From Burkholderiaceae bacterium (GTDB taxonomy: Bacteria; Pseudomonadota; Gammaproteobacteria; Burkholderiales; Burkholderiaceae_F): a stretch of DNA of 25,130 nucleotides. Made by a program: the position numbers and the translations under genes. Shown here in pieces: positions 2,713 through 24,323 of the stretch (positions within the stretch are counted from its first letter, which is position 1; each line of letters begins with the position of its first letter). The stretch covers positions 1 to 25,130 of the forward strand of contig JBGSWX010000156.1 in the NCBI GenBank assembly GCA_041751695.1, written 5' to 3'. A model generated the notes under the pieces. That model was not told the DNA's origin and ran no database searches. It saw only the letters and a program-made list of their open reading frames with translations.

Positions 2713-5145
2713 GTGAGCGCCACACCCAATTCGACTCCCGGACGCGCCAGTCGCACGACGGTTCACCGCGTCATCGGCGAAATGCGCAAGATGGTGCGCA
2801 CGCAGTTCGAGCCGCTGCTGCCCGAGGCTGCGCGCGAAGCAATTCAAGCGATTGACGCGGACGACACCGCTTCGGCGACGCTGAAAAAATCGGTGCGCCG
2901 GCTGCTGGTCGATCAGCGCGAATTTTCCAATGCGTTTTTCACCGCGGTCGACAGCCACATCGATGCTGCGATCGACGAGCTGTTCAGCGGCGGCGGTGAA
3001 AAGAAATCGGGCGCACCGGCCGGCGGCAACGCGTTGAGCCTGTCGCTGGTCGAGTACGACGAGATGGAAGAAGCGATGGTGATCGATCGCTTTTCATCCC
3101 GCATTCGCAATGCGGCCGACGCATCGTTTAATCCGCTCACACAGCGGCTCGCCAGGGCGCTGCAAATTCCGGGGTTGGGCGATCGTGAAAACCCGCTTCA
3201 TCCTGTGCGTTTTTGCCGCGCGCTGGGCGACGCGATCGACAAGCTCGGGTTCAAGGGCGATCAGCGCCATGCGGTGCTCAAGGCGTTCGATGTCAGCCTA
3301 TTGAAGCCTTTGGTGGCTGTTTACACCGCGCTCAATGACGACTTGCAAGGCAAGGGCGTGCAGGAAGGCGCCGCCGCGTCGTCCGGCTACAAAAACACCA
3401 CCGCCGGTTTTCGAAATACGATGATTGGCGGCGCCAGCTCGGGCCGGCCGTCGCAGCAGGGCCAGATGCCTGGACAGGCCACCGGCGCCACGGCAGAGCA
3501 GCTGCTGAGCGCGCTGTATCAGCGCATGCAAGTGCCGGTCACTCCGGGCGGCATGCGGCCGATGCCGATGATGCACACGCAGCAGCCTGCGATGCCGATG
3601 TTCGATCGGGTTGAGCCGGTGACGGGCGCCTCGCCGATGTCGCCCGGCTTCGTCATCACCGGCGCGATGTCGATGCCGGTCGCGCCCGGCACACCGATGC
3701 AGTTTGCCGCCATCGATCCGGGTCTGCTGGCATCGATCAACGAAGTGCAGCGCTTGAACGCCATGGCCACCATGGCCGGCAAGAGCGGAGCCGCAGCGCA
3801 GATGATCAGCGAGCGCGACGAGGCGCATTTGCGCTCGCACGTCGCTGAAAAAGCGACCAAGCAGATCGACAAGCTGACGATCGAGCTGGTCGGCATGGTG
3901 TTCGATCGCATTCATCAGGACAAGCACCTGCCGGTGGAAATCAAGACCGCGATATCGCGCCTTCAGTTTCCGATCATGAAGATAGCGCTGTCGGATTCCG
4001 ATCTGTTCGTCTCGCCGGTGCAGCCGGCGCGCCGGCTGATGGATCGCATCGCCAGCACCGGCATCGGCTGGCGACCCGAAGGCGAGGATAACGTTCGTTA
4101 TCTGTCCGAGGTCACCAAGGCGGTCAACACCGTGGTCCTCGCGATCAACGACGGCCCGCCGATTTTCGAGAAGGCACTCGGCGAGTTCGAGCAATACCTG
4201 GCCGAGGAGCGGGTGCGCGACGATGACCCGGTCACACGCGCGAAGCGAGCGCTCGAGGAGGCCGAGACGCGCGAGATCATGTCGATTAACGCCGCCATCG
4301 GCATTCGGCAAGCGTTCGACGGCGTGCAAATCGAATCGTATCTGCGCGACTTTCTGCTGGGAGCCTGGGTCAAGGTCCTGGTCGCCGCGACGCTGCGCGA
4401 GCGCACGCAGCCGTCGTTCGCCAAGAAGTTTCGCGATGTCGTGCCCGATGTCGTGTGGAGCGTGCAGCCGAAGATCGATCCGGAGGAGCGCAAGCGCCTG
4501 GTCAAGACGATTCCCGCGGTGCTCAGTACGGTGCGCGAGGGCCTGCAGCTGACGGACTTTTCTGCTTCCCAATCGCAGGAATTTTTTTCGCGCTTGATGA
4601 CCTCGCACGCGCAGGCCGTCAAGGCGCTCGAAGTCGCCTACGGCACCGGCGCTCCGCTCGACCCGGCAGCGTTCAAGCGCAAGTTCGATGAAGTCAAGAT
4701 CGTCGAGCCGCCGCCGATGGTCGAAGAAGAACCCCAGTACCTCACCATCACACCGGAAGCCGTGCGCAGCGCAGTGGCCGCCAATCATGCGGAGGTCAAT
4801 CTGGTGGAGGCGCCACTGACCGTGCAGCCCGAGGAGATGATCCCGATCGAGAAACTGTCCGACGGCGACATCGACGTCATGATCGGAGGCTGGCAGCGCG
4901 GCACCTGGTTCGATCTATGGACCGGCGAGCAGACCGAGCGCGTGCGCCTGCGCTGGATCAGCCCGCGCCGCAATTTTTATCTGTTCACGTCCGCCGAGAC
5001 CGGCAAGGCGCACAGCTTGGCGCCGCTGATATTGCGTGGCTACGTGCGCGCCGGACGACTCAGGACGACCGAGAGCGCGCCGCTGTTTGAGCGCGTGGTC
5101 GACGGCCTGATGCGCGATCTGCAGCCTGAAGGCGCGCCGGCTTAG
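2713..5145 (+). CDS. DUF1631-like protein, paralog A (810 aa, GTG start)
   Basis: Long helical ORF with LSLSLVEYDEMEE, RENPLHP, IELVGMVFD...ISRLQFPIMKIAL...PARRLMDRIA, WSVQPK and a C-terminal RGTWFDL...LRWISP module, the pattern I recognise for DUF1631 (PF07793). Clear similarity to 6237-8615. Confidence 0.8.
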   Translation: MSATPNSTPGRASRTTVHRVIGEMRKMVRTQFEPLLPEAAREAIQAIDADDTASATLKKSVRRLLVDQREFSNAFFTAVDSHIDAAIDELFSGGGEKKSGAPAGGNALSLSLVEYDEMEEAMVIDRFSSRIRNAADASFNPLTQRLARALQIPGLGDRENPLHPVRFCRALGDAIDKLGFKGDQRHAVLKAFDVSLLKPLVAVYTALNDDLQGKGVQEGAAASSGYKNTTAGFRNTMIGGASSGRPSQQGQMPGQATGATAEQLLSALYQRMQVPVTPGGMRPMPMMHTQQPAMPMFDRVEPVTGASPMSPGFVITGAMSMPVAPGTPMQFAAIDPGLLASINEVQRLNAMATMAGKSGAAAQMISERDEAHLRSHVAEKATKQIDKLTIELVGMVFDRIHQDKHLPVEIKTAISRLQFPIMKIALSDSDLFVSPVQPARRLMDRIASTGIGWRPEGEDNVRYLSEVTKAVNTVVLAINDGPPIFEKALGEFEQYLAEERVRDDDPVTRAKRALEEAETREIMSINAAIGIRQAFDGVQIESYLRDFLLGAWVKVLVAATLRERTQPSFAKKFRDVVPDVVWSVQPKIDPEERKRLVKTIPAVLSTVREGLQLTDFSASQSQEFFSRLMTSHAQAVKALEVAYGTGAPLDPAAFKRKFDEVKIVEPPPMVEEEPQYLTITPEAVRSAVAANHAEVNLVEAPLTVQPEEMIPIEKLSDGDIDVMIGGWQRGTWFDLWTGEQTERVRLRWISPRRNFYLFTSAETGKAHSLAPLILRGYVRAGRLRTTESAPLFERVVDGLMRDLQPEGAPA

Positions 5146-5308
5146 TGGCCTGTAACAGCCGAATCCAGGCCGAAGGACGCGCCACTCGGCGTGCAGGGCT
5201 AGGCGCAAAGCACAGCAATACTCGAAGGTATTGCGAGCATTTGCAACGCCGCCATGCGCGTCGATGGCGTGGCAGGCGGGCTAGGCATTTGGCCGTTACA
5301 GGCGACTA
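5143..5308. mobile_element. MITE / ERIC-like non-autonomous element: 162-bp body (5145-5306) with TA target duplication
   Basis: Terminal inverted repeats GTGGCCTGTAACAGCCGAAT (5145-5164) and 5287-5306 (reverse complement GTCGCCTGTAACGGCCAAAT), 17/20 identical. TA at 5143-5144 and 5307-5308. Central hairpin GCAATAC-tcgaag-GTATTGC (5215-5234) lies at the midpoint. No transposase in the window. Confidence 0.7.
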
Positions 5309-5309
5309 A

Positions 5310-6068
5310 GTGTCGCGTAGCCGGAGCAGTAGTCCAGTCACCCTTTCGGAAGAAGATGGCGTCCGCTATCTGCACTTCGGGACCCAATGGGTGCAAGGCG
5401 GCATGCGCATTGCGCGGCCGTTCGCATTGGAACTCGAGTACCAGCGGCAGATGATGGCGGTCGGACTATTTTTGCCGCAGCCGCAATCCATCGTGCAACT
5501 GGGTCTGGGCGCCGGTGCGCTCACCAAATTCTGTTTGCGCCATGTGGCCAGCGCGCGCATCGTCGCCGTCGAGCTCAGCGTCGATGTCGTCGATGCGGCG
5601 CGCGCTTGGTTTTGCCTTCCTCAGGACGACGCGCGCTTGACGGTGATCAACGCTGATGCGCGCGCGTTCATCAGCCATCCACGGCAGCGCGGCTGTGCCG
5701 ATTGGCTGCAGGTCGATATCTACGACGCTGACGCACGCGGCCCGGTGTATGACGACGTCGCGTTCTACCGCGCGTGTGCGAAGGCGTTGCGAGCCCCCGG
5801 TGTCGCGGCGTTCAATCTGTTCGGCCGACGCTTCGATCCGAGCTTCGCGGCGATCACAGAGGCGTTCAAAGATCGTGCACTCGTGCTGCCCGAAGTCGAT
5901 GAGGGCAACCGTGTCGTGCTGGCCTTCGCCGGCCCGCTGCTCGACGTGTCGTTTGCTGCACTTAACCGGCGCGCGCGCGAACTCGAAGAGCGCTGGAAAC
6001 TCGCCGCGCGCGGCTGGGTTGCGGGGCTGCGTCGCGCGAACGCGTTCGGCGCGACGTTTTCTGTTTGA
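5310..6068 (+). CDS. Spermidine-synthase-fold, class I SAM-binding protein (probable methyltransferase), 252 aa
   Basis: SEEDGVRYLHFGTQWVQGGM, LELEYQRQMM, QLGLGAGAL (SAM-binding glycine loop), VAVELS, DARAFI, QVDIYD, PGVAAFNLF. Confidence 0.8.
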   Translation: MSRSRSSSPVTLSEEDGVRYLHFGTQWVQGGMRIARPFALELEYQRQMMAVGLFLPQPQSIVQLGLGAGALTKFCLRHVASARIVAVELSVDVVDAARAWFCLPQDDARLTVINADARAFISHPRQRGCADWLQVDIYDADARGPVYDDVAFYRACAKALRAPGVAAFNLFGRRFDPSFAAITEAFKDRALVLPEVDEGNRVVLAFAGPLLDVSFAALNRRARELEERWKLAARGWVAGLRRANAFGATFSV

Positions 6069-6070
6069 AA

Positions 6071-6087
6071 CCGATGCGAAACATCGG
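6071..6087 (+). terminator. Weak hairpin after the methyltransferase stop
   Basis: CCGATG-cgaaa-CATCGG, 6-bp stem starting 2 nt after the TGA; no clear U-tract. Confidence 0.2.
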
Positions 6088-6139
6088 CTAATGCCTTCAA
6101 TTTAGGGATATTTTGCTACCAGTAACTGCTTAAACTTGC

Positions 6140-6167
6140 TTGACAGCCTGTGCGACGCGGATAGAGT
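6140..6167 (+). promoter_or_regulatory. Putative sigma70 promoter for DUF1631 paralog B and the ATPase
   Basis: Perfect TTGACA (6140-6145), 16-nt spacer, TAGAGT (6162-6167), in a locally AT-rich intergenic stretch about 70 nt upstream of ATG 6237. Confidence 0.6.
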
Positions 6168-6236
6168 CCGCCGTCTATAGTGTCGAAGCCGCTGAGTGTG
6201 CGGCGTCTGAAACCTTGCCAAGAAACCAGGGACTGC

Positions 6237-8615
6237 ATGGAGTTTCCTCCGGCTTCCGAACCGTCGCGCACCAGCAGTGACGTGCCGTTTGTGACGGCGG
6301 CGCAGGCGTCTGCGCTGCTGAAGTCCGGCATGGCGATTTCCAACGAGCTGATCGGCGCCGCGTTCCCTGAGTTTGCCAAGACGATTCTCGACGATCTTTC
6401 CGGCAAGTGGGATTTCGATGTCGGGTCGCCGCTGGTGCAGCGGCATCTGGCTGCGAAGTTCGACGATCTGCACCACACGTTCATGGCGCGCCTGCAGGAA
6501 ACGCAGGATCAATATTTCCACGAAATCACCGTGGGCCGGGTGCAGGCGCCTCCCGGCTCGCTCGATGCAGAAACGCTGTCGCTGGTCGATTCGATTTCGG
6601 TTGAAAGCAACACCGTGGTCGAGCGCCACGCGAGCAAGGTCGCCGGCTACGCCGAGCAATCGCTGCGCGATCTGAATCTGGTGGTGGCGTTCCTGCTGGG
6701 CAGAAGCAACGTTCGCAGCTCTGAGAATCCGCTTGGCCCCGGGGTGTACGTGCGCGCATTGCTGCGCGCTGCCGAAGACACCGACCTGCATAAGGAGGCG
6801 TGGGAGTTTTTTCTGACGGTGTTCGAGAAGCCGTTCGGCGAGGAGCTGGCGCGCATCGTGCGGCAGCTTCTGGATCACTACGCCAATCACGGCGTCGACG
6901 TGCGCGCAGTGCGCAGAACGCGGGCGGCGCCCAAGCAGTCGAGTACTCCGTGGCAGGTTCCGGGCAGTGGCGCCCCGGCAAACGCCGGCAATAGCGCTTC
7001 GAATTCGGAGGCAAGCCCGCGTGGAAACAATGCGGCGGGCGCCCAGGCGAGGTCGCAGGGCGGTGCAGGCCAGGGGCCTGAAGAACCGAACATGCTGCTC
7101 GGCGGATTGTTGACGCGCCTGCAAGCCAACGCCCGCGGATCTCGGCTGCCGCATCTCCCCTCGCACGGTCCGGCGCCGCAGCAGTTGCTGCAGTCGATCG
7201 GCGAGTTTCAGCAGATGAACCTGCACGAGCTCGGTCCGAGCGGAAATTTTGCGCTTCCGACCGAATCGGTCAGCGCGATGCGCGACGAGCTGATTTCGAA
7301 GTCCACGCGCGTGGTCGACAAGTTGACGATCGAGCTGGTCGGCATGCTGTTCGATCACGTGATGCAGGACAAGCAAGTGCCCTCGGAGATCAAGGCGCGC
7401 ATTTCACGGCTGCAGTTTCCGGTGCTCAAGTCGGCGCTGATGGATGCCGCGTTTTTTGCGTCCAGTGCGCATCCGGCGCGCAAGCTGATCGACCGCATCG
7501 CCGGCACGTCCGCCGGGTGGGAGCCGTATGGCGACGACAACCAGCGCTATTTGAAGGAAGTCGATCGGGTCATCACCGAGATTCTGAAAAATTTTGAAAC
7601 CGATCTCGGCGTATTTGAGCGGCTGTACGGTGAGTTCGACAAGTTCGTCTCCGACATCGCGCCCGAAGAAAACGATCCGGTGTCGCGCGCCAAGAAAGCG
7701 CTCGAGTCGGCCGAGAAGCACGAGATTCTGACGATCAACACGACGATTCAGGTCAGGCGCGCATTCGAGCGGGTCGATCTCGAGCCTTACATCAAGGAGT
7801 TCCTGCTCGGTGCTTGGGTCAAGGTGCTGGTCGCTGCGACGATACGGCAGGAGAAGACGCCCGGATTTGCGAAAGCGTTCCGCGATGTCATTCACGAGGT
7901 GGTGTGGTCGGTGCAGCCGAAGGCGAGCACCGAAGATCGCGGCAAGCTGGTCAAGCTGATCCCCAGCATGGTGCGCGTGCTGCGCGACGGTTTCGGCCTG
8001 ATCAACGTGCCCGAGCGCGACCGCGAATTGTTTTTCACGCAGCTGATGGAATCACACGCGATGGCCGTCAAGCCGGTCGATCAGGCGACCTATATCAAGT
8101 CGAGCCTGCTCGCCTCCGAGCTGCGCGCCAAGATCGACGGCATGCAGTTGTCAGGCGTGTTCCCGGTCACGACCGTGCCGGGCGGCATCAAGGTGCCGAC
8201 CAACGTCATCATGCGCGCCGCTGCTGAGCACAAGGCCGATATTTTCATGCCCGATCCGGTGACCGACATCGGGCGGCTCGACCCGGTCGAAGACGCGCGC
8301 GTGCAGGAAGAAATCGGCCGCTGGCAGCGTGGCAACTGGTTCAAGCTGTGGAACGGCATGGAGTTCTCGCGCGCCAAGCTGCGCTGGATGAGCCCGTTGC
8401 GAACGTTGTTCCTGTTCGCCAGCGAGCACGATCAGAAAGCGCACGTGATGTCGGCCGACATGTTGAAGTCATACCTGGCGCGCAAGTACATCGAGCCGCT
8501 CGAAAGCGTGCCGCTGACCAAGCGCGCGGTCGATGCGGTAGTGGCCGATTTTGAGAACGTCCCCGATCGGGCGAAGTCGATGGCCAAGCGCTACGAGGCG
8601 TCGCAACCGGCATGA
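6237..8615 (+). CDS. DUF1631-like protein, paralog B (792 aa from ATG 6237; the ORF track extends it to GTG 6180)
   Basis: Same motif order as paralog A: LSLVDS, SENPLGP, IELVGMLFD...ISRLQFPVLKSAL...PARKLIDRIA, LLGAWVKVLVAAT, WSVQPK, RGNWFKL...LRWMSP. ATG 6237 fits the upstream promoter better than GTG 6180. Confidence 0.8.
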   Translation: MEFPPASEPSRTSSDVPFVTAAQASALLKSGMAISNELIGAAFPEFAKTILDDLSGKWDFDVGSPLVQRHLAAKFDDLHHTFMARLQETQDQYFHEITVGRVQAPPGSLDAETLSLVDSISVESNTVVERHASKVAGYAEQSLRDLNLVVAFLLGRSNVRSSENPLGPGVYVRALLRAAEDTDLHKEAWEFFLTVFEKPFGEELARIVRQLLDHYANHGVDVRAVRRTRAAPKQSSTPWQVPGSGAPANAGNSASNSEASPRGNNAAGAQARSQGGAGQGPEEPNMLLGGLLTRLQANARGSRLPHLPSHGPAPQQLLQSIGEFQQMNLHELGPSGNFALPTESVSAMRDELISKSTRVVDKLTIELVGMLFDHVMQDKQVPSEIKARISRLQFPVLKSALMDAAFFASSAHPARKLIDRIAGTSAGWEPYGDDNQRYLKEVDRVITEILKNFETDLGVFERLYGEFDKFVSDIAPEENDPVSRAKKALESAEKHEILTINTTIQVRRAFERVDLEPYIKEFLLGAWVKVLVAATIRQEKTPGFAKAFRDVIHEVVWSVQPKASTEDRGKLVKLIPSMVRVLRDGFGLINVPERDRELFFTQLMESHAMAVKPVDQATYIKSSLLASELRAKIDGMQLSGVFPVTTVPGGIKVPTNVIMRAAAEHKADIFMPDPVTDIGRLDPVEDARVQEEIGRWQRGNWFKLWNGMEFSRAKLRWMSPLRTLFLFASEHDQKAHVMSADMLKSYLARKYIEPLESVPLTKRAVDAVVADFENVPDRAKSMAKRYEASQPA

Positions 8616-8734
8616 GTCGTCCGCCGGGCCGACACAAGGACGGCGCGGGTCCCTCCTGGAGGGACCGCGCGCAGCGCCAGGGAGCACAAATGAGCCCCGG
8701 GGGGACCGCGCGTAGCGCCAGAGGCCAACAATGA
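8612..8734 (+). CDS. Possible 40-aa bridge peptide encoded by the repeat (MSRPPGRHKDGAGPSWRDRAQRQGAQMSPGGTARSARGQQ)
   Basis: Its ATG overlaps the paralog B TGA (ATGA 8612-8615) and its own TGA overlaps the ATPase ATG (ATGA 8731-8734). Translation is not demonstrated. Confidence 0.3.
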   Translation: MSRPPGRHKDGAGPSWRDRAQRQGAQMSPGGTARSARGQQ

Positions 8735-8738
8735 GCCC
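8612..8738. repeat. ATGAG-anchored palindromic (REP-like) tandem element
   Basis: ATGAG at 8612, 8690 and 8731. Direct repeat 8661-8697 vs 8702-8738 is 31/37 identical with a 41-bp period. Hairpin GGTCCCTCC-t-GGAGGGACC (8648-8666) extends to about 8643-8670 with one bulge. Confidence 0.75.
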
Positions 8739-10569
8739 GAAGGACGGGGCCGCTGTCCTGAGCAATACGACGCAACCGCGCGAAAAGATCGCGCGCGCAC
8801 AGCCGGTGCAGGCGCCACCGGGCCGCGTCACGAGCGGCTACGTGATCAAACAGCTCGTGGTCGATGGATTGTTGTCGGCCGCCGATGCCGAGCGCTTCAA
8901 GATGACCGGCGGCCGCGAGCGTGCCGGGCATCCGCTGGTGGTCCTGGCCGAGATGAACTACCGCTCGCCGCAGGCCGATCGGCAATTGCTCGATCTCGAA
9001 ACGCTAACGCGCTGGATTTCCGAAAAAGCCGCGCTGCCGTACTTCCACATCGATCCGCTGAAGGTCGATTTCACGCGCGTCGTCGATGTGATGTCGGCGT
9101 CGTACGCGACGACGTATTCGATCCTGCCGGTGTTGATGACTCCCACCGAAGTCACGATCGCCACCAGCGAGCCGTTCCTGACCGGCTGGGATCGCGAGAT
9201 CGAACAGATCACCAAGAAAGCCGTACTGCGCGTCGTCGCCAATCCGCTCGACGTTGCGCGCTACACCACCGAATTCTTCAAGCTTGCGCAGCAGGTGCGC
9301 GGCGCGGCGAAAACCGGCAGCACAGCGCTGGTCTCGAGCTTCGAACAGCTGGTCGAGCTCGGCGGCAAGGTCGAGGCCAACGACGCGCACGTCATTCATA
9401 TCGTCGACTGGCTGCTGCAATACGCGTTCGATCAGCGCGCGAGCGATATTCATCTTGAGCCGCGGCGCGAATTCGGCGTCGCAAGATTCCGCATCGACGG
9501 CGTATTGCATCAGGTGTACCAGGTGCCGGCCGGCGTGATGGGCGCGATGACGAGCCGCATCAAGCTGCTCGGTCGCATGGACGTGGTCGAGAAGCGGCGT
9601 CCTCAAGACGGGCGCATCAAGACCAAGGTTTCAACGGGGCAGAACGCGGGGCGCGAGGTCGAGATCCGTTTGTCGACGCTGCCGACAGCGTTCGGCGAAA
9701 AACTCGTGATGCGCATTTTCGATCCCGAAGTCGTGGTGCGCAGCTACGCCGAGCTTGGCTTCGCCAACGAAGAGGCGAAGCTATGGGAGAACTGGATCCA
9801 TCGTCCCTCCGGCATCGTGTTGGTCACGGGGCCGACCGGCTCCGGCAAGACCACGACGCTGTATTCGACGCTGAAGCAGCTGGCAACCGACGAAGTCAAC
9901 GTCAGCACGGTCGAGGACCCGATCGAGATGGTCGATCCGGCGCTAAACCAGATGCAGGTTCAGCACGGCATCGATCTTGGCTTCTCCGACGGCCTGCGCG
10001 CATTGATGCGGCAGGATCCGGACATCATCATGGTGGGCGAAATTCGCGACAAGGAAACGGCCGACATGGCGGTGCAGGCTGCGCTGACCGGCCATCTGGT
10101 GTTCTCGACGTTACACACCAACGATGCCGCGTCGTCGATCGCGCGGCTAATGGAACTCGGCGTGCCGAACTATCTGGTCAACGCCACCCTGGTCGGCGTC
10201 CTGGCGCAGCGGCTGATACGCACGCTGTGCCCGCACTGCAAGGCGCTCGGTGAGCCGATCGATCCTGTCCTGTGGAAAGAGCTCGTCAATCCGTGGCGCT
10301 CAAATATTCCGGACAAGGTCTACAAACCGGTCGGCTGCCTCGAATGCCGCAACACCGGCTACATGCGCCGCACTGGATTGATCGAGATGCTGGTGATGAC
10401 CGACGCGATGCGGGCACTGGTGTCGCAGCAGGGCGACATCGTCAAGCTGCGCAATCAGGCCGCGCGCGATGGGTTGAAGTCCTTACGCCTGTCCGGTGCG
10501 CAGAAAATTGCGCACGGTGTGACGACGATGGAGGAGGTGCTGAAGGCGGCGCCGCCGTTTACTACTTAG
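8731..10569 (+). CDS. GspE/PulE/PilB-family type II secretion / type IV pilus assembly ATPase, 612 aa
   Basis: RASDIHLEP, KRRPQDGRI, Walker A GPTGSGKTT, Asp box VEDPIE, Walker B RQDPDIIMVGEIRD, His box STLHTND, tetracysteine CPHC...GCLEC. Confidence 0.93.
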   Translation: MSPKDGAAVLSNTTQPREKIARAQPVQAPPGRVTSGYVIKQLVVDGLLSAADAERFKMTGGRERAGHPLVVLAEMNYRSPQADRQLLDLETLTRWISEKAALPYFHIDPLKVDFTRVVDVMSASYATTYSILPVLMTPTEVTIATSEPFLTGWDREIEQITKKAVLRVVANPLDVARYTTEFFKLAQQVRGAAKTGSTALVSSFEQLVELGGKVEANDAHVIHIVDWLLQYAFDQRASDIHLEPRREFGVARFRIDGVLHQVYQVPAGVMGAMTSRIKLLGRMDVVEKRRPQDGRIKTKVSTGQNAGREVEIRLSTLPTAFGEKLVMRIFDPEVVVRSYAELGFANEEAKLWENWIHRPSGIVLVTGPTGSGKTTTLYSTLKQLATDEVNVSTVEDPIEMVDPALNQMQVQHGIDLGFSDGLRALMRQDPDIIMVGEIRDKETADMAVQAALTGHLVFSTLHTNDAASSIARLMELGVPNYLVNATLVGVLAQRLIRTLCPHCKALGEPIDPVLWKELVNPWRSNIPDKVYKPVGCLECRNTGYMRRTGLIEMLVMTDAMRALVSQQGDIVKLRNQAARDGLKSLRLSGAQKIAHGVTTMEEVLKAAPPFTT

Positions 10570-15104: not shown

Positions 15105-15697
15105 CGCCCGGCCGCGGTCCTGCGCTGGCGCGCGCGATCGATCGCAGCAGCGACGACCGCACTTTGTTGCTGAACGTCCGTAGGCTCAGGCTCGCGCTCA
15201 GGCCGTTTCGGCACAGTGCGCTGCCGTTCGATGTGAGTGTGATAGCGGGCGCGTGCGGCTTGTGCATCGCTCACTGTCCACGCGCGCGCCGGCGCAACTG
15301 GAACCATCGAGATGCAATCCATCGGGCACGGCGGCAGGCACAGATCGCACCCGGTGCAGAGCGAAGCGATCACCGAGTGCATGCGCTTGGATGCCCCGAC
15401 GATCGCATCGACCGGGCACGCCGGAATGCACAACGTGCAGCCGATGCATCGGCCTTCGTCGATCACCGCCAGCATTAACGGCTGCTCGACGCCGTTGGCG
15501 GGATTCAGCGGCAGCGGAACGCGGCCCAGCAGCTGTGCGAGTTTCTCAACGCCGGCTACGCCGCCTGGAGGGCATTGATTGATCTCGGCCGCACCGGCGG
15601 CAATCGCGTCGGCATAAGGGCGGCAACCTTCGTAACCGCATTTCGTGCACTGCGTTTGCGGAAGCAGGGCGTCGATAGCCTCAGTCAGCCGCGACAT
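15101..15697 (-). CDS. rnfB: RnfB/RsxB-like Fe-S protein without N-terminal membrane anchor, 198 aa
   Basis: [19 protein letters not shown]...NQCPPGG plus two ferredoxin motifs ([32 protein letters not shown]); ATGA overlap with nth. Confidence 0.88.
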
Positions 15698-15701
15698 TCG
15701 G

Positions 15702-16937
15702 CTATGAATTGGCCTGGATGAATTTCGCGATCTCAGGCGCAATCTTTCCGCGCCAGCGACGCCCGCTGAAAATACCGTAGTGGCCGGTGCGCTCGGCCGT
15801 CATGTGCCGCTTTTTTGACTTTGGTATGTTTCTGCACAACTCGTGCGCGGCTTGCGTCTGGCCGCTGCCCGAAATGTCGTCGAGCTCGCCCTCGATCGTG
15901 AACAGCGCCACCGTGCGGATATCCTGCGGCTTCACCAGCTGCCCGCGCACTCGCCACTTGCCGTCGGGCAGCAGATGCTCCTTGAACACGATCTTGATCG
16001 TGTCAAGGTAGTACTCCGCGGGCAGATCGATCACCGCGTTGTACTCGTCGTAGAACTCGCGATGACCGTCGGCGTCCTCCTGATCGCCTTTGACCAGGTC
16101 GAGGTAATAATCCCAGTGCGACTTCAAATGCCGGTCCGGATTCATCGCAACAAAACCGGCGTGTTGCAGAAAACCCGGATACACACTGCGCAGATAACCG
16201 GGATGCGCTGCCGGCACCTTGAAGATGACATTGTTGGCAAACCAGTGTGCGCTTTTTCGCATCGCCAGCGCATTGACCTGAGTTGGATTGCGGCGCGGAT
16301 CGATCGGGCCGCCCATCATCGTCATCGACTTCGGCAGCTTCGGGTCCTGATTGCTCGCCATCAGCGAAATGGCTGCAAGCACCGGCACGGTAGGCTGGCA
16401 CACGGAGATAACGTGCAAGTCCGGGCCGAGCAGCTGCACGAACTCGATAACGTAGTCGACGTAGTCGTCGAGGTGAAACGGCCCCGCGGACACCGGGACC
16501 AGCCGGGCATTGATCCAGTCGGTGATGTACACGTCGTGGGTTGGCAGCAGCGCTCGCACCGTATCGCGCAGCAAAGTTGCATGATGCCCAGACAGCGGCG
16601 CCACGATCAATATCGTCGGATCGGCGGCGTGATCTGCAACCTTGGGCGGTAGCGTGCGTGTGAAGTGAAGCAGCCGGCAAAACGGCTTCACGAGAACGAC
16701 CTCTTCGCCGACGGCAACGTCCACGCCGTCAATTTGCGTTGACGTTAGCCCGAACTCGGGCTTCTCGTAGTGCTTGCCGAGCCGATACAACAGGTCATAA
16801 CCCGCAGCGATCCGTCGCGACAGCGGCGTGTAGGCCCATGGGCTGTAGGGATTCGAGAACAATTGCGACGTTGCCCGAGCCCACTCCGAGAGCGGGTTCC
16901 ACAGACGACGCTGCATTTCATGCAGGTGATAGAGCAC
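15702..16937 (-). CDS. phaZ: Intracellular polyhydroxyalkanoate depolymerase (PhaZa1 type), 411 aa
   Basis: [30 protein letters not shown], cysteine nucleophile box [34 protein letters not shown]. Confidence 0.93.
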
Positions 16938-17319: not shown

Positions 17320-17351
17320 GCGTTGCTTGCAACGCACAAACCGCTATTCTA
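17320..17351. promoter_or_regulatory. Divergent overlapping promoters with a palindromic putative operator
   Basis: Palindrome GCGTTGC-tt-GCAACGC (17320-17335). Plus strand: TTGCTT (17323-17328), 16-nt spacer, TATTCT (17345-17350). Minus strand: TAGAAT (17351-17346) upstream of fdxA. Confidence 0.5.
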
Positions 17352-17378
17352 GCGTCGCACTTTCATGAGAACGTCTAC

Positions 17379-18599
17379 ATGACTACCCGCCGCCAGGTTC
17401 TCGTTGCTTCCGCTGCTATCGGCGCTACAGCGGGGTTGCCGCTTCGCGCGCGCGCTCAGTCCGTGCCGATCCGCATCGGTGAGATCAACAGCTATTCGAC
17501 GATTCCGCAGTTCACGCTGCCGTATCGGATGGGGTGGCAGCTTGCGGTCGAGGAAGTCAACGCCGCCGGCGGATTGCTCGGGCGCAAAGTCGAAGTGATC
17601 TCGCGCGATGACGCCGGCAAGCCGGAAGACGCGATTCGCCTGGCGACCGAGCTCGTCACGAACGAGCGCGTTGTGTTGGTTACGGGGACGTTCCTGTCGA
17701 ACGTCGGTCTGGCGGTGTCGGACTTCGCTCTGCGCAACAAGATTGTCTTTGTCGCCGCCGAGCCGCTGACCGATGCGCTGGTGTGGGAGAAGGGCAATCG
17801 CTACACGTTTCGGCTGCGGCCGAGCACGTACATGCAGGCCGCGATGCTGGTGGAAGAAGCCGTAAAGCTGCCCGCCAAGCGCTGGGCGACGATCGCGCCG
17901 AACTACGAGTACGGTCAGTCCGCAGTCGCCAACTTCAAGCAGCTGTTGAAAGCCAAGCGGCCCGATGTCGAGTTCGTTGCCGAGCAATGGCCCGCGCTCG
18001 GCAAGCTGGAAGCCGCGAGCACGGTGCAGGCGATCATCGCAGCGCGGCCCGACGCGGTGTTCAATGCAACCTTCGGCGCCGATCTGCCGCGGCTGGTGCG
18101 CGAAGGCAATCTGCGTGGATTATTTCCGCGCGTGCCGGTGGTGAGCCTGTTGTCCGGCGAGCCCGAGTATCTCGATGTATTGAAGGACGAAACGCCGAAG
18201 GGGTGGATCGTCACCGGGTATCCGTGGGATCAGATCTCGACACCGGAGCACTCGAAGTTTTTCAACGCGTACTACAAGCGGACCAACGAGACTCCGCGGC
18301 TGGGCTCGGTGGTCGGTTATGCGACCTTCACCGCGATCTTCGAAGCAATTCGCAAAGCGAAATCCGTGGATACCGAAAAGCTCATCACCGCTCTGCGCGG
18401 GCTGCAGTGGTCGACGCCGTTCGGTCCTGCGCAATTCCGCGCGGTCGATCAGCAGTCGACGATGGGCGCCTACGTCGGCAAGCTCGATTTGCGCGACGGC
18501 AAGGGCACGATGACCGGCTGGCGCTACGCGGACGGCGCGAATTATCTGCCGCCCGAGCGCGAGGTCGCGAAAATGCGGCCGCTTGAAGCGCAGAAGTAG
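17379..18599 (+). CDS. ABC transporter substrate-binding protein, LivJ/LivK (HAAT) type-1 fold, Tat-like signal, 406 aa
   Basis: MTTRRQVL twin-arginine-like leader, IRIGEINSY, AVEEVNAAGGLLGRKVEVISRDD, RYTFRLRP, PNYEYGQS. Confidence 0.9.
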   Translation: MTTRRQVLVASAAIGATAGLPLRARAQSVPIRIGEINSYSTIPQFTLPYRMGWQLAVEEVNAAGGLLGRKVEVISRDDAGKPEDAIRLATELVTNERVVLVTGTFLSNVGLAVSDFALRNKIVFVAAEPLTDALVWEKGNRYTFRLRPSTYMQAAMLVEEAVKLPAKRWATIAPNYEYGQSAVANFKQLLKAKRPDVEFVAEQWPALGKLEAASTVQAIIAARPDAVFNATFGADLPRLVREGNLRGLFPRVPVVSLLSGEPEYLDVLKDETPKGWIVTGYPWDQISTPEHSKFFNAYYKRTNETPRLGSVVGYATFTAIFEAIRKAKSVDTEKLITALRGLQWSTPFGPAQFRAVDQQSTMGAYVGKLDLRDGKGTMTGWRYADGANYLPPEREVAKMRPLEAQK

Positions 18600-18629
18600 C
18601 CGGCGTCCTTCGCAAACTTCGCACCGCCG

Positions 18630-20462
18630 GTGGATCTTTTCCTCGGCCAGTTGATCGCAGGCCTGTCGTACGCCTCGACGTTATTTTTGGTCAGCGCCGG
18701 CCTGACGCTGATTTTTGGTGTCACGCGCGTGGTCAACTTTGCGCACGGCTCGCTGTACATGATCGGCGCGTATCTGGCGTACACGATCACGACGCACCTG
18801 CCAGCCACTTCATTCGGATTCTTCGGCGGGGTGCTGCTGGCCGCGCTCGGCGTTGCCGTCTTCGGCGCGGCGATCGAGATCGTACTGCTCAGACGCATCT
18901 ATGCGTCGCCCGAGATCTTTCAATTGCTTGCCACGTTCGGCGTCGTGCTGATCGTGCAGGACCTCGCGCTGCAGATCTGGGGTCCGGAGGAACTGTTCGC
19001 GCCGCGCGTTCCGGGCTTAAAAGGCAGCGTCGAGATCGCCGGTGCATTTGTGCCGCAATATTCGTTGTTCGTGCTGCTGATCGGCCCCGCGGTATTTGCG
19101 TTTCTATGGTGGCTGCTGAACCGCACGCGCTGGGGCGTCTGGGTTCGCGCATCCTCACAAGACCGCGAGATTTCAAGCGCGCTCGGCCTGAACGAGCCGC
19201 GGCTCTTCACCTCGGTGTTCGCGCTCGGCGCGTTTCTCGCCGGCCTGGCGGGCGCACTGCAAATCCCACGCGAGACCGTCAATCTGCAGATGGATCTGTC
19301 GATTCTGGTCGAAGCGTTTGTGGTCGTCGTGGTGGGTGGGCTCGGATCGGTGACCGGCGCGCTATGGGCGGCGTTGCTAATCGGCTTGCTGCATGCGTTC
19401 GGCACGTTGTGGCTACCGCAGTCAACCCTGGTGCTGATCTTCGTCGTGATGGCAGCAGTGCTGATCGTGCGGCCGCATGGCCTGCTCGGGCGCCCGACCG
19501 CCCCGCACGTCGCACGCGCATCGGCGCACGCGCCATTCGTTCCGCTCGCGCACTACTGGCGTGCGATTGTCGTCGCTGCGCTCGTGACAGCGGTGGTGAT
19601 ACCCGCGCTGATCGGCGACTACGCGATCGTGATCGCCACCGAGATCGCGATTGCTGCACTACTCGCAGCGAGTTTGCATTTCGGCATGGGACTGGGCGGC
19701 ATCATTTCATTTGGGCACGCCGCGTTCTTCGGGCTGGGTGCCTACTCGGTTGCGCTGGCGATCGAACACATCGGCGCGCCGTTTGCGGTTGCGCTGCTGC
19801 TGGCGCCGTTTGCCGCGGGCGTGGTGGCGCTGCTGGTTGGGCGCGTGGTGTTGCGATCACACGGCGTGTACGCGGCGATGCTGACGCTCGCGTTCGCTCA
19901 GATCCTGTGGTCGACCGCGGTGCAGTGGGTCGACGTGACCGGTGGTGATAACGGCTTGCTCGGCCTATGGTCGGTGTTGCCCGCTGCGCTGTCGTCGCCG
20001 ATCGCGTACTACGTGTTGACTCTGCTGATCGTCGTCGTCTCGCTGACAGTGCTGCGGCGGGCTGCACTGGCTCCGTTTGGGTTTGCGCTGCGCGCCACGC
20101 GTGACAGCGCGCCGCGCGCCGAAACGATCGGCATCGACTCGCATCGCACCCGCTGGCTCGCGTTTAGTGCGGGCGGTCTCGCGGCCGGCCTGGCCGGCGC
20201 GCTGCATGCTTTCCACAAGGGGTCAGTGTTTCCCACGTCGCTGTCGATTCCGGTATCGGTCGATGCATTGGTCATGGTGTTGTTGGGCGGAGTGCAGACA
20301 CTCTCGGGTCCGATCGTGGGGGCGCTGGCGTACCACGGGCTGGCCACCGAGCTGACTCGCGTGACGGATCACTGGCGACTGATCCTCGGTCTTGCAATCG
20401 TGCTGCTGGCGGCGGCGTTTCCGGAAGGCATCGTCGGGTTCTTGCGGCGCCGGGTGCGATGA
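18630..20462 (+). CDS. Fused LivH-LivM ABC permease, 610 aa
   Basis: GLTLIFGVTRVVNFAHGSLYMIGAY (LivH-like half), ISFGHAAFFGLGAY, TGGDNGL and VLLGGVQTLSGPIVGA (LivM-like half); multiple hydrophobic segments. Confidence 0.9.
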   Translation: MDLFLGQLIAGLSYASTLFLVSAGLTLIFGVTRVVNFAHGSLYMIGAYLAYTITTHLPATSFGFFGGVLLAALGVAVFGAAIEIVLLRRIYASPEIFQLLATFGVVLIVQDLALQIWGPEELFAPRVPGLKGSVEIAGAFVPQYSLFVLLIGPAVFAFLWWLLNRTRWGVWVRASSQDREISSALGLNEPRLFTSVFALGAFLAGLAGALQIPRETVNLQMDLSILVEAFVVVVVGGLGSVTGALWAALLIGLLHAFGTLWLPQSTLVLIFVVMAAVLIVRPHGLLGRPTAPHVARASAHAPFVPLAHYWRAIVVAALVTAVVIPALIGDYAIVIATEIAIAALLAASLHFGMGLGGIISFGHAAFFGLGAYSVALAIEHIGAPFAVALLLAPFAAGVVALLVGRVVLRSHGVYAAMLTLAFAQILWSTAVQWVDVTGGDNGLLGLWSVLPAALSSPIAYYVLTLLIVVVSLTVLRRAALAPFGFALRATRDSAPRAETIGIDSHRTRWLAFSAGGLAAGLAGALHAFHKGSVFPTSLSIPVSVDALVMVLLGGVQTLSGPIVGALAYHGLATELTRVTDHWRLILGLAIVLLAAAFPEGIVGFLRRRVR

Positions 20463-21202
20463 GCTTGCTGATCGTCGATCGATTGCAAAAAAGCTTTGGC
20501 GGGGTGCGCGCACTCGACGGCGTGTCCTTTGGTCTCGACGCGAGTGATCTCGCTGCACTGATCGGGCCCAACGGCGCTGGGAAATCCACGCTGTTCAATT
20601 TGATCGACGGCCAGCTTGCGCCCGATGCAGGCACGGTGAAATACGACGGGCAGCCGATCGCGGCGCTCGCGACGGCCGAACGCACGCGACGCGGCATCGG
20701 CCGCACGTTTCAAGTGGCACAGATTTTCGGCACGATGACCGCGCTGCAGAACGCGCAGCTTGCGATCGCCGCCGCACGCGGTGAAGCGCAACGAATCGGT
20801 GGGCCGCTGTGGAATCTGCATGTGCCGGCGGCGCGTTCGCTGCTGTCACAAGTTGGACTTGAGGCGCGCGCATCCACGGCCGCGGGGGAGCTCGCCTACG
20901 GAGATTCGAAGCGGCTCGAGCTCGCGCTCGCGCTCGCCGGCCAGCCGCGGCTGTTGCTGATGGACGAGCCCACCGCCGGGATGGCGCCGGCCGAGCGCAC
21001 GGTACTGATGCAGCTCGTCACTTCGCTCGCGCGCGAGCGTTCAATGGCCGTACTGTTTACCGAGCACAGCATGGACGTCGTGTTCGGTTTTGCACAACGC
21101 GTGCTGGTGATGTCGCAGGGGCGATTGATCGCCGACGGTGCGCCCGAGGACGTTCGCGTCGATCCCGAGGTTCGGCGTGTTTATCTGGGCGCAGAAACAT
21201 GA
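20459..21202 (+). CDS. ABC ATP-binding protein, LivG-like, 247 aa
   Basis: GPNGAGKST, GIGRTFQ, LAYGDSKRLELALAL, LLMDEPTAGM, TEHSMD, VRRVYLG. Confidence 0.92.
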   Translation: MSLLIVDRLQKSFGGVRALDGVSFGLDASDLAALIGPNGAGKSTLFNLIDGQLAPDAGTVKYDGQPIAALATAERTRRGIGRTFQVAQIFGTMTALQNAQLAIAAARGEAQRIGGPLWNLHVPAARSLLSQVGLEARASTAAGELAYGDSKRLELALALAGQPRLLLMDEPTAGMAPAERTVLMQLVTSLARERSMAVLFTEHSMDVVFGFAQRVLVMSQGRLIADGAPEDVRVDPEVRRVYLGAET

Positions 21203-21927
21203 GCCCGGCGCTCGAGCTGCGCAGCGTGTCGGCCTGGTACGGTCGCGCGCAGGTGCTGTTCGATGTAAATCTCTCGCTCGCCGGCGGCGAGGTCGTCGCG
21301 TTGATCGGCCGCAACGGCGCCGGCAAGACCTCGCTGCTGCGCGCAGCGATGGGGTTGATGCCGCGCGTGTCGGGGAGAGTCTGGCTTGACGGCACCGACA
21401 TCACTCGCGAGCCAGCATTTCGCCGGGCTCAACACGGACTCGGCTACGTGCCCGAGGATCGGCGCATCTTTACGGATCTGACGGTCGTGGAAAATCTGCG
21501 CATTGCCGCACGACTATCGCCCGACGGATTCACCGAGCGCGAGTTGTTGACGCTGTTTCCCAATCTGGCCGAGATGCTCGATCGGCCGGCCAGCGAAATG
21601 AGCGGCGGCGAGCAGCAGATGCTTGCGGTCGCTCGCACGCTGGCGGCGAACCCGCGTGTCGTGTTGCTCGATGAACCGTCGGAAGGCATCGCTCCGATGG
21701 TGGTTGCGAAGATGCGAGACGCCGTGCTCGCGATGAAGTCGCGTGGAGTGGCAACGTTTGTGTCCGAACAGAACGTGCGCTTTGTCGCGGCGATTGCCGA
21801 CCGTGCCGTGCTGATGGAGCAGGGCAGGCTGGTCGGCTCGGCAACGCGCGAGCAGCTTGCGGCGCCGAGCGAAGCGGTGCAGCGTGTTCTCGGGCTCGGC
21901 AAGACGGCACCTACAATCTATCGATGA
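21199..21927 (+). CDS. ABC ATP-binding protein, LivF-like, 242 aa
   Basis: [46 protein letters not shown]. Confidence 0.92.
21912..21917 (+). promoter_or_regulatory. Possible internal -10 (TACAAT) for a leaderless pncB transcript
   Basis: TACAAT is separated from the pncB ATG (21924) by 6 nt and lies inside the livF-like 3' end; no clear -35. Confidence 0.35.
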
Positions 21928-23114
21928 TCATCACCTCTCTGCTCGACACCGATCTGTACAAGTTCACGATGATGCAGGTCGTGCTGCATCATTTTCCGGG
22001 TGCCAGCGTCGAATACCGCTTCAAGTGCCGCAATGCCGGGATCGACCTGGTGCCGCACATCGAAGCGGTTTGCAACGAGATCGATTCGCTGTGCGAGCTG
22101 CGGTTTCGAGACTCCGAGCTTCAGTATCTGCGCGGGCTGCGTTTTATCAAAAGTGATTTCGTCGACTTTCTCGGCCTGTTTCAGCTGAACACCAAATACA
22201 TCACGGTGGCCCCGTCGCCGCTCGACAACGGCGAGATCGACATCGTCATTCGCGGGCCGTGGCTGCATACGATTCTGTTCGAGATCCCCGTGCTGGCGAT
22301 CGTCAACGAGGTCTACTTCCGCGCGCAGCAAAAGGCGGCGGATTTCGACGAAGGGAGGCGCCGACTGCACGCCAAGATCGAGCTGTTAAATGGCGATCCG
22401 GGACTCGACGGCGTGCGAATCGCCGATTACGGGACGCGCCGCAGATTCTCACGCCACTGGCACGAGGAGGTTCTACTGCAGTTGAAGAAAACGCTCGGCG
22501 ACAAACTCGCGGGTACCAGCAACGTGATGTACGCGGCGATGCACGGCATGACGCCGCTGGGCACGATGGCGCACGAGTATCTGCAGGCGTGCCAGGCGCT
22601 CGGCCCGCGCCTGCGTGACTCGCAAACGTTCGGCTTCGAGATGTGGGCGCGCGAGTATCGAGGCGACTTGGGTATCGCGTTGTCCGACGTCTACGGCATG
22701 GATGCGTTCCTGCGCGACTTCGACATGTACTTTTGCAAGCTGTTCGACGGCGCGCGGCATGATTCGGCAGATCCTTTCGCATGGGGCGAGCGCTTGATTG
22801 CGCATTACCAGCGCAACCGGGTCGACCCCAAAACCAAGGTCCTGGTGTTTTCCGACTCGCTGACGATTCCGAAAGTGATCGAGCTTTATCAGCGGTTTCG
22901 CGATCGCGCGCGCACCGCCTTCGGCGTCGGCACCAATCTGACCAACGATGTCGGCTACACGCCGCTGCAGATCGTGATCAAACTGGTTCGATGCAACGGC
23001 CAGCCGGTGGCCAAGCTGTCGGACTCGCCGGACAAGAACATGTGCGACGATCAGGCGTACCTGGCCTATCTGCGGCAGGTGTTCGAGATTGCACCGGCAG
23101 TGACTTCCCAATAG
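21924..23114 (+). CDS. pncB: Nicotinate phosphoribosyltransferase, 396 aa
   Basis: [35 protein letters not shown] (phospho-His region), [34 protein letters not shown]. Confidence 0.97.
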
Positions 23115-23120
23115 AGCTCC

Positions 23121-24323
23121 ATGCAGCGCCTGTCCCGCCGCGCCGACGCGCTCGGCACCGAGAATGCATTCGTCGTGCTGGCCGAAGTGAACCGGCTGAT
23201 CGGCGCGGGGCGCGACATCGTCTCGTTCTGCATCGGCCAGCCTGATTTTCCGACGCCGATTCACATCCAGGACGCAGCGGTCGAAGCTGTGCGCGGCGGC
23301 AAGCACGGCTACACGCCCTCCGCCGGTATCGACGAGCTGCGCGCAGCGGCGGCGAAGTCGATGGGCGCACTGCGCGGGCTGCAGATCGCCCCCGACGAGG
23401 TTGTCGTCGGCGCCGGCGCCAAGCCCTTTATCGCGTACACGATTGCATCGGTGACCGACTACGGCGCCGGCGACGAAGTGATTTTCCCGGTGCCGGGGTT
23501 TCCGATTTACGAATCGCAGATCGTTGCCAACGGCGCGGTGCCGGTGGCATTGCCGCTGTCGGAGTCGCGCGGCTTTGCATTCGACCCGGCCGAGCTCGCG
23601 GCGCGGATCGGCCCAAAAACGCGGCTGCTGATTCTGAACACGCCGCACAACCCGACCGGAGGGTTGCTGTCGCGCCGTGATCTGGATGCGATTGCAGAAG
23701 TGCTGCGCGCGCATCCGCAGGTATGGATTTATGCCGACGAGATCTACAGCAAGCTCGTGTACGACGGTGAATTCAGTTCGATTGCGGCGCTGCCCGGCAT
23801 GCGCGAACGAACGATCATCTCGGACGGCGCATCGAAAACGTATGCGATGACGGGATGGCGCATCGGTTTTGTAGCCAATGAGATTCTGGCGCCGGTTTTT
23901 ACACGCTGGATCACGAATACCGAATCGTGCGCGTCGCAAATCAGCCAATGGGCGGTGGTTGCAGCGCTGACGGGGCCGCAGGATGAAGCCGCGCGCATGA
24001 GGCAGCGCTTTCAGCAACGCCGCGACTTGATCGTGCGGCTGCTCAACGCGTTGCCGGGATTTCGCTGCGCGGCGCCGGGTGGCGCGTTCTACGCCTGGCC
24101 CAACGTGACGGAAGCGTGTGCCATCGTCGGCGCCAAGGATTCGGAAGAGCTGCGAACGCGGTTGCTGCACGAGGCCGGCGTTGCCGTGCTGGCCGACATT
24201 CACTTCGGGCCGCGCGTGGAAGCAGATGGCCAGCACATTCGCTTTTCTTATGCGGCCAGCGAAGCGGCAATCGAAGAGGGCGTTCGCCGCATCGATGCGT
24301 TCATGCGCAAGGCACGCCGATGA
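23121..24323 (+). CDS. Class I/II PLP-dependent aminotransferase (AspC/AatA-like), 400 aa
   Basis: IGQPDFPTP, GYTPSAGIDELR, NTPHNPTG, ADEIY, SKTYAMTGWRIG (PLP lysine), GGAFYAWP, IRFSYA. Confidence 0.92.
   Translation: MQRLSRRADALGTENAFVVLAEVNRLIGAGRDIVSFCIGQPDFPTPIHIQDAAVEAVRGGKHGYTPSAGIDELRAAAAKSMGALRGLQIAPDEVVVGAGAKPFIAYTIASVTDYGAGDEVIFPVPGFPIYESQIVANGAVPVALPLSESRGFAFDPAELAARIGPKTRLLILNTPHNPTGGLLSRRDLDAIAEVLRAHPQVWIYADEIYSKLVYDGEFSSIAALPGMRERTIISDGASKTYAMTGWRIGFVANEILAPVFTRWITNTESCASQISQWAVVAALTGPQDEAARMRQRFQQRRDLIVRLLNALPGFRCAAPGGAFYAWPNVTEACAIVGAKDSEELRTRLLHEAGVAVLADIHFGPRVEADGQHIRFSYAASEAAIEEGVRRIDAFMRKARR

Follow-up and report, generated by a model that had tools for sequence, protein, structure and literature searches.

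Which substrate is carried by an ATP-binding cassette (ABC) transporter of the LIV type that is encoded directly upstream of pncB? The question is raised by a stretch of 25,130 nucleotides (contig JBGSWX010000156.1 of assembly GCA_041751695.1, hereafter the window), which derives from a 2.58-Mb, 600-contig, 76%-complete metagenome-assembled genome of an uncultured Burkholderiales lineage. Four transporter genes are followed there by pncB, the product of which converts nicotinate to nicotinate mononucleotide (NaMN) in the Preiss-Handler salvage route to nicotinamide adenine dinucleotide (NAD). From genome context, phylogeny and phyletic pattern, on which the substrate assignment is based, the four genes probably encode a HAAT (LIV-type) ABC importer of nicotinate, or possibly of nicotinate and nicotinamide. 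In the proposed mechanism a binding protein exported by twin-arginine translocation (Tat) would capture niacin in the periplasm, a fused LivHM permease and two ATPases would carry it into the cell, and PncB, encoded immediately downstream, would turn nicotinate into NaMN for NAD synthesis.

Gene content and protein identities

The open reading frame map, together with scans against Pfam and NCBIfam, revealed five head-to-tail genes:

17379..18599, + strand, periplasmic substrate-binding protein of 406 aa with a Tat-type leader and a Peripla_BP_6 domain, the predicted nicotinate-binding component
18630..20462, + strand, fused LivH+LivM-type permease of 610 aa with two BPD_transp_2 stretches
20459..21202, + strand, ABC ATPase 1, LivG/UrtD-like, with ABC_tran and BCA_ABC_TP_C domains; its start overlaps the permease stop by 4 bp
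21199..21927, + strand, ABC ATPase 2, LivF/UrtE-like, with an ABC_tran domain; its stop overlaps the pncB start
21924..23114, + strand, pncB, nicotinate phosphoribosyltransferase of 396 aa with NAPRTase and NAPRTase_N Pfam domains

A gap of 30 nt after the binding-protein gene is followed by three 4-bp overlaps, the last being the ATGA at 21924-21927. No terminator-like site was predicted by a consensus scan at the ATPase-pncB junction or beyond it, the total for the region (9 against 7.1 expected) being at chance level. The five-gene run with its ATGA overlap and without a terminator, as described in the original prediction, was thus recovered by the gene map, the domain scans, the reading of the junctions and the terminator scan. 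No nicotinate-catabolic genes were detected in the 25-kb window by the Pfam and NCBIfam scans.

The leader of the binding protein (MTTRRQVLV...ARA/QS) is twin-arginine-like, and the protein matched PF13458 (Peripla_BP_6) with 235 bits over residues 30-374. It scored 66.6 bits against LivJ (NF011933, cut-off 477) and 74.2 bits against UrtA (TIGR03407, cut-off 492.75), and falls outside both families. The permease consists of a UrtB/LivH-like half at residues 3-291 and a UrtC/LivM-like half at residues 310-609. ATPase 1 gave 201 bits with UrtD and 199.5 bits with LivG, and ATPase 2 gave 225.8 bits with UrtE and 172 bits with LivF, all of them under the equivalog cut-offs. A Peripla_BP_6 binding protein, LivH and LivM domains (here fused) and LivG- and LivF-type ATPases place the system among the HAAT/LIV-type ABC importers (TC 3.A.1.4). 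PncB is a member of both NF003704 (585 bits, cut-off 379) and TIGR01514 (473 bits, cut-off 270). The public names of relatives are all generic or 'branched-chain amino acid', the JGI name being 'branched-chain amino acid transport system substrate-binding protein'; with the binding protein far under the LivJ and UrtA cut-offs, this default label is as doubtful as had been suspected from the sequence.

The three signature motifs quoted in the original prediction, IGEINSY, RYTFRLRP and GEPEYL, were all read in the binding protein. All three are common to it and to PDB 3i45_A, to which it is approximately 66% identical over the full length (E 1.3e-155), and its PDB homologues are all LivJ-fold binding proteins. 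Nine signature residues (G34, E35, Y39, T143, R145, R147, E261, P262 and E263) do not vary among the 46 binding proteins of the family, a pattern compatible with one class of ligand; it may be conjectured that R145 and R147 bind a carboxylate. The 3i45 entry ('twin-arginine translocation pathway signal protein') is presumably a structural-genomics entry from Rhodospirillum rubrum, and may contain bound nicotinic acid, a point that was not used as evidence.

Genomic context of homologous transporters

The neighbours of homologous transporters were surveyed at 33 loci, using 20-kb regions from an order and a phylum sample that cover two Pseudomonadota classes. The loci were mapped by tblastn with reference proteins identified by Pfam and NCBIfam, and by Pfam and NCBIfam scans of selected frames. 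Homologues adjoin nicotinate-catabolic or NAD genes at many of the 33 loci, as the original prediction had anticipated for such a survey, and the binding proteins at nicotinate-type clusters are 51-76% identical to that of the window. The recurrent cluster contains either a molybdenum (Mo) hydroxylase of the xanthine dehydrogenase (XDH) type with a flavin adenine dinucleotide (FAD) subunit, or a protein of approximately 1,300 aa with molybdopterin-binding and cytochrome c domains, the architecture of Pseudomonas putida NicB. It further contains a 500-aa protein that has no Pfam or NCBIfam match and is named "6-hydroxynicotinate reductase" by NCBI and JGI, a 333-aa protein of no known family, one or two AA_synth (PF06684) proteins, the transporter, and an amidohydrolase or hydantoinase A/B. 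The less familiar members are located as follows:

L105:6113-7114, 333-aa protein without a family match
L104:14772-15356 and 15387-15992, pair of AA_synth (PF06684) proteins

A homologue of the 6-hydroxynicotinate reductase lies within 10 kb of the transporter at 15 of the 33 loci, and at 8 of the 18 unselected loci of the phylum sample. Genes of NAD metabolism recur as well. PncA directly follows the transporter at L104, L106 and L116, where it scores above its curated cut-off, and at L105, where it was recognised by homology (loci of families f28, f45 and f58). The clusters of L104-L106, in which the reductase, the XDH-type hydroxylase, the amidohydrolase and PncA adjoin the transporter, encode binding proteins 73-76% identical to that of the window. 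In family f13 pncB follows the cluster at three loci, a NicB-like Mo/cytochrome c hydroxylase separating the ATPases from pncB, and three alphaproteobacterial clusters have a divergent pncB (33% identity, 455-501 bits, cut-off 379) approximately 8 kb away. Bordetella was considered as the carrier of the bare homologues of f58 and was dropped, f58 comprising Comamonas and its relatives.

The tie of this transporter to nicotinate-catabolic clusters, which the original prediction had put forward, is borne out by the reductase and Mo hydroxylases beside homologues of 51-76% identity, and by the literature (PMC3511419). Shettigar et al. 2012 (PMC3511419, citing Alhapel et al. 2006) named a "putative nicotinate ABC transporter" in the degradation clusters of Azorhizobium caulinodans (AZC_2790-2804), Bradyrhizobium japonicum (blr3818-3830), Rhodopseudomonas palustris and strain SG-6C. 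The idea of a nicotinate ABC transporter for catabolic clusters is thus prior art, and is itself a prediction. LIV-type ABC genes also occur in the 5-hydroxypicolinate cluster of Alcaligenes faecalis (bioRxiv 10.1101/171595).

At several loci (L087:13847-17589, L107, L114, L125, L132 and L134) hydantoinase/oxoprolinase A and B genes stand straight after the ATPases, in the usual place of the amidohydrolase. From this position, some lineages may open the ring by another, ATP-dependent step.

Conservation of the linkage to pncB

The arrangement was followed through a sample of 201 genomes of the window's family, contig coordinates being compared by hand. The pncB start lies less than 6 kb from the binding-protein start in 40 genomes of 8 genera, and the arrangement is therefore not a chance juxtaposition. 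Inserts of 7-15 kb separate the two genes in six more family genomes, and in one they are 156 kb apart. Among the 80 closest loci in named genomes, the order phaZ-fdx-binding protein-permease-ATPases-pncB-aminotransferase is kept wherever the binding protein is at least 79% identical. Three genera of the family have binding-protein homologues at 60-64% identity that are unlinked to pncB.

A different arrangement was found in Polaromonas, Rhodoferax and Limnohabitans, where an orphan binding-protein gene (71-76% identical) stands elsewhere in the genome; that of Limnohabitans is flanked by a sulfate-assimilation operon and an FAD oxidoreductase. All five orphan-type genomes tested carry a fused permease (46-48% identical) and two ATPases directly upstream of pncB:

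L057:9980-11188, orphan binding-protein gene; also in L053, L055, L075 and L079
L099:5820-11380 (Limnohabitans), permease-ATPase-ATPase-pncB operon without a binding-protein gene; likewise in L100-L103

The block of the Polaromonas group is flanked upstream by histone-deacetylase-family and nitroreductase-family genes and downstream by CitMHS_2 and 2-hydroxyacid dehydrogenase genes. The order permease-ATPase-ATPase-pncB has thus been kept though both flanks were replaced, which speaks for selection acting on the linkage. At L099 the permease start overlaps the stop of the nitroreductase-family gene, so the operon starts further upstream there. A close permease homologue was present in 41 genomes outside the family. 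Among these, a co-directional pncB a few kb downstream was seen in family f13 alone; in family f14 pncB lies 5-15 kb from the permease homologue and is convergent. At the level of the order, the association with pncB is lineage-restricted.

Phylogeny of the binding proteins

A maximum-likelihood tree was calculated from the 46 family binding proteins and rooted on a paralogue encoded in the window's genome. All pncB-linked and orphan sequences group in a single clade (SH-aLRT 100), the sister group of which consists of the proteins from the catabolic clusters with pncA at L104-L106 (SH-aLRT 98). The next branch outward is another catabolic-cluster protein. The pncB-linked proteins are therefore nested within those of catabolic clusters, a topology that fits the recruitment to NAD salvage put forward in the original prediction, or a reduction. 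The simplest reading would be that a catabolic island was cut down to importer and pncB; the direction of change is inferred from the nesting, with a distant paralogue on a long branch as the root. In this family of uncultured Burkholderiales the degradative genes would have gone, with only the importer and pncB left, as the predicted route to NAD. The f13 proteins stand elsewhere in the tree, so the pncB adjacency in f13 involves a different branch of the transporter family.

NAD synthesis genes and the presumed need for an importer

Genes of NAD metabolism were searched for in genome G000 and four relatives of 97-100% completeness (G024, G113, G010 and G004), representing three genera of the family. 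NadA and NadC were not found in these five genomes, each search being positive in 12 of 14 control genomes, and this leaves no known de novo route to NaMN. PncA scored above its cut-off in one of the five and was not found in the window's genus; nicotinamide would be unusable without it. Where NadA, NadC and PncA are all missing, NAD could be reached, as far as can be seen, only through PncB and imported nicotinate. PnuC (PF04973, NMN_transporter) was not found in the window or in the five family genomes, the control search being positive in 4 of 14. With NadA, NadC, PncA and PnuC undetected, the members of the family are predicted niacin auxotrophs. The 6-hydroxynicotinate reductase was also not found in the five genomes, a control rerun being positive in three cluster-bearing genomes; the lack of catabolic genes, originally claimed for the window, thus extends to near-complete genomes of the same genus in the case of the reductase.

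The distribution of NadC across the family sample is nearly exclusive of that of the transporter. A NadC hit (E ≤1e-20) was obtained in 2 of the 81 genomes with the binding protein as against 63 of the 120 without it, and of the two hits that occur beside the binding protein one is partial and one is split in two. In each of the genera g2 and g20 a single genome lacks the binding protein, and this genome alone has NadC above the cut-off. NadC was also absent from all five cluster-bearing genomes tested (f13, f45 and f28).

At G158:C23:96820-97613 nadC is present in two adjacent pieces in a genome that also has the transporter; this could be a pseudogene being lost, or an assembly error. In g9 (23 genomes of 1.4-1.9 Mb) and g23 pncB is present with neither a NadC hit nor the transporter, and these genera are predicted to be niacin auxotrophs that use a different importer. 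Genomes G348, G431, G409, G488 and G497 (loci L104, L105, L109, L110 and L111), which are 90-98% complete Burkholderiales, contain a full degradation-type cluster with pncA/pncB and no NadC. Such organisms would break down a vitamin that they are unable to make, as is known of Bordetella.

Candidate promoter elements and the expression of pncB

Two promoter-like elements were recognised around the transporter genes:

17341..17354, + strand, upstream element CCGCTATTCTAGCG with a -10-like TATTCT (17345-17350), 29 nt before the binding-protein start codon
21912..21917, + strand, TACAAT, a -10-like hexamer 6 nt upstream of the pncB ATG, inside the coding end of ATPase 2

The core of the first, (C/G)TATTCTAGC, is conserved upstream of the binding-protein gene at approximately 20 related loci of several genera, with varying flanks, and the element is the probable promoter of the transporter genes. 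The second belongs to a conserved pattern before pncB, CC-TACAAT-N6-ATG with no Shine-Dalgarno sequence, and no Shine-Dalgarno sequence is present before the window's pncB. TACAAT stands at -12 in 27 of the 35 transporter-linked rows (the window included), both within coding sequence and between genes, and one further row has it at -13. The -12 position is kept whether the ATPase stop overlaps the ATG or sits 18-33 nt upstream. The hexamer is also found at -12 in one f13 locus, and is absent at -12 in five Polaromonas-group loci and in 16 pncB genes without an upstream transporter, approximately six of which have a clear GGAG-type Shine-Dalgarno sequence. Since a hexamer ending 6 nt before the start has the geometry of a leaderless-mRNA promoter, the pattern suggests that pncB has a candidate leaderless-type promoter of its own beside any read-through. 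Transporter genes and pncB may nonetheless be co-expressed.

In 24 of 32 family loci the pncB start lies -4 to +84 nt from the ATPase stop, six of these loci showing an overlap; elsewhere one 165-nt gap and two inserts of several kb were found. As the spacing varies, the ATGA overlap is not a conserved feature. Of the translational coupling proposed in the original prediction, the overlap itself is real in the window and in a few relatives, but most relatives have a gap of 18-84 nt at this junction. A promoter belonging to pncB would likewise weaken coupling as the mechanism, though not the functional association. A fusion of ATPase and PncB at five loci was ruled out, the ATPase stop codon lying at least 18 nt upstream of the pncB ATG in each.

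A perfect palindrome, GCGTTGC-tt-GCAACGC (GCGTTGCttGCAACGC), is located at 17320-17335 between the divergent ferredoxin gene and the binding-protein gene and is kept only in the closest relatives, L011 and L019. No operator shared by the regions upstream of the transporter, the orphan binding-protein genes and the permease-pncB operons was seen, only lineage-specific -10-like elements, and inspection by eye showed no clear NadQ-type site (consensus from PMC5343134).

Alternative explanations

Several points weigh against an importer of nicotinate tied to PncB. No experimental work on ligand binding, transport or expression was found in the literature for any member of the family. Most fused-permease homologues in other Burkholderiales families do not adjoin pncB, and at 10 of the 33 surveyed loci the transporter stands bare, with no informative gene beside it. 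The conserved TACAAT suggests that pncB may be expressed independently of the transporter. The counts of transporter and NadC come from related genomes, which are non-independent samples, and many NadC matches in the transporter-less, small-genome genera reach 140-175 bits, under the 198-bit cut-off. Three of the five genomes with an orphan binding protein have NadC, so the link to auxotrophy fails outside the window's family. The searches for other NAD routes and importers were confined to NadA, NadC, PncA and PnuC.

The alternative that survives best, although it is unlikely, is that the substrate is a related pyridine instead of nicotinate, namely nicotinamide, 6-hydroxynicotinate, quinolinate or nicotinamide mononucleotide (NMN). 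In the sister clade the gene directly beside the transporter is that of PncA, an enzyme acting on nicotinamide; the hydroxylases of some clusters have cytochrome c domains, and their product, 6-hydroxynicotinate, could be the imported species. Such binding proteins can also be promiscuous, Bug27 binding nicotinate, nicotinamide and quinolinate (PMC11452294). However, PncA, NadC and hydroxynicotinate-consuming enzymes were not found in the window's genus, which leaves nicotinamide, quinolinate and 6-hydroxynicotinate without a consuming enzyme there, and the gene kept beside the transporter encodes PncB, the substrate of which is nicotinate.

Less probable again is that the adjacency of pncB is a leftover of a decayed catabolic island, with the transporter serving another aromatic or heterocyclic acid and having no functional tie to PncB. 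The frequency of bare homologues and the probable promoter of pncB would agree with this, as would the presence of aromatic-acid importers in the HAAT family (PDB 4ey3, 4evs and 4f06, matched at E 1e-8 to 1e-24). A mere leftover is nevertheless hard to square with a permease-ATPase-ATPase-pncB block that outlasts the replacement of both flanks in another family, or with the near mutual exclusion of transporter and NadC in the window's family, within-genus contrasts included. The binding protein has also kept 73-76% identity to its counterparts in intact clusters, and none of the signature residues varies.

An ordinary LIV-type importer of branched-chain or neutral amino acids or of urea, beside pncB by chance, is very improbable, for while the domain architecture is that of LivJHMGF/UrtABCDE, the best NCBIfam matches are Urt and Liv models and JGI names relatives as branched-chain amino acid substrate-binding proteins, the scores are far under every Liv and Urt equivalog cut-off, homologues stand repeatedly among nicotinate-specific enzymes in two Pseudomonadota classes, and other, more Liv-like binding proteins are encoded elsewhere in the window's genome.

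Other genes of the window

The gene that follows pncB was identified as:

23121..24323, + strand, class I/II aminotransferase (Aminotran_1_2, 195 bits), starting 6 nt past pncB

It scored below every specific NCBIfam cut-off. The aminotransferase is the conserved right-hand neighbour of pncB in the window's genus and at most family loci, sometimes after a 1.7-kb insert, and other lineages have different genes in its place; its membership of a functional unit with the transporter and pncB is uncertain. The window further encodes HtpG, a UDG-like protein, two DUF1631 paralogues, a PilB/GspE-type ATPase, an AAA ATPase, Nth, an RnfB-like protein, PhaZ and a divergent FdxA-type ferredoxin, with the aminotransferase and a LUD-domain protein on the downstream side. 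At 2713-10569 the DUF1631 paralogues (383 and 371 bits) flank a 252-aa protein without a family match, and a T2SSE/MshEN-type ATPase comes after them.

Comparison with known transport systems

The closest described counterpart is the putative nicotinate transporter of the degradation clusters (PMC3511419). Both systems consist of a binding protein, a fused permease and two ATPases, and their binding proteins are orthologous, being 51-76% identical with an invariant signature and with that of the window nested among the others. The window transporter differs in lying outside a degradation cluster: the hydroxylase, reductase, amidohydrolase and conserved genes of unknown function are absent from its locus and were not found in the genus. 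As it is followed by pncB and not by catabolic genes, its predicted role is vitamin scavenging and not carbon or nitrogen catabolism. With LivJ/LivK-LivHMGF of E. coli and UrtABCDE of cyanobacteria the system shares Peripla_BP_6, BPD_transp_2 and LivG/LivF-type ATPases with the BCA_ABC_TP_C tail, whereas its permease halves are fused and its context is pyridine metabolism rather than amino acids or urea.

The NAD-regulon papers list only importers of the NiaP, NiaX and PnuC types (PMC2330245, PMC2330246, PMC5343134), in agreement with the statement of the original prediction that the known niacin importers are not LIV-type ABC systems. NiaP (major facilitator superfamily, MFS), NiaX (the S-component of an energy-coupling factor transporter) and PnuC (Rodionov et al. 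2008, PMC2330245, PMC2330246) resemble the window transporter in their predicted supply of NAD precursors to PncB-type salvage and in adjoining NAD genes. They belong to an unrelated class, the window transporter being primary, ATP-driven and binding-protein-dependent, and therefore presumably of higher affinity. Bug27 and Bug69 of Bordetella (Sorci et al. 2024, PMC11452294), which belong to the tripartite tricarboxylate transporters (TTT), are likewise beta-proteobacterial binding proteins tied to NAD precursors by context, and their genes stand apart from those of membrane components, as do the orphan copies of Polaromonas, Rhodoferax and Limnohabitans. They differ in having another fold family, in secondary transport of the TTT type, in a preference for quinolinate and in being tied to nadC and nadQ, not to pncB. 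For the niacin-auxotrophic bordetellae, pyridine uptake is stated to proceed "by unknown mechanisms" (PMC11452294).

Implications

What is new is the salvage-dedicated, cluster-free form of the predicted nicotinate transporter, its reading as an importer of nicotinate being the likely one. A fuller account, in which we place about as much belief as doubt, would be that a family-level clade of Burkholderiales from soil, biocrust and hot springs has lost de novo NAD synthesis and depends on a high-affinity ABC niacin importer derived from a decayed degradation island that was cut down to importer and pncB. In this account pncB would be expressed from a leaderless-type promoter in the 3' end of the last ATPase gene, the binding-protein gene of Polaromonas, Rhodoferax and Limnohabitans would have been relocated and would serve the operon that lacks one, and the system would be the first ABC niacin importer dedicated to NAD salvage.

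The existence of culturable carriers (Polaromonas, Rhodoferax, Limnohabitans and Comamonas) and of a close crystal structure makes the nicotinate-importer reading directly testable. If true, it would add a fourth, probably high-affinity, class of bacterial niacin importer and would correct a "branched-chain amino acid" mis-annotation across thousands of database entries. It would also provide a clear example of a catabolic island reduced to a vitamin-scavenging operon, and would predict a growth requirement for nicotinate in an abundant uncultured soil lineage.

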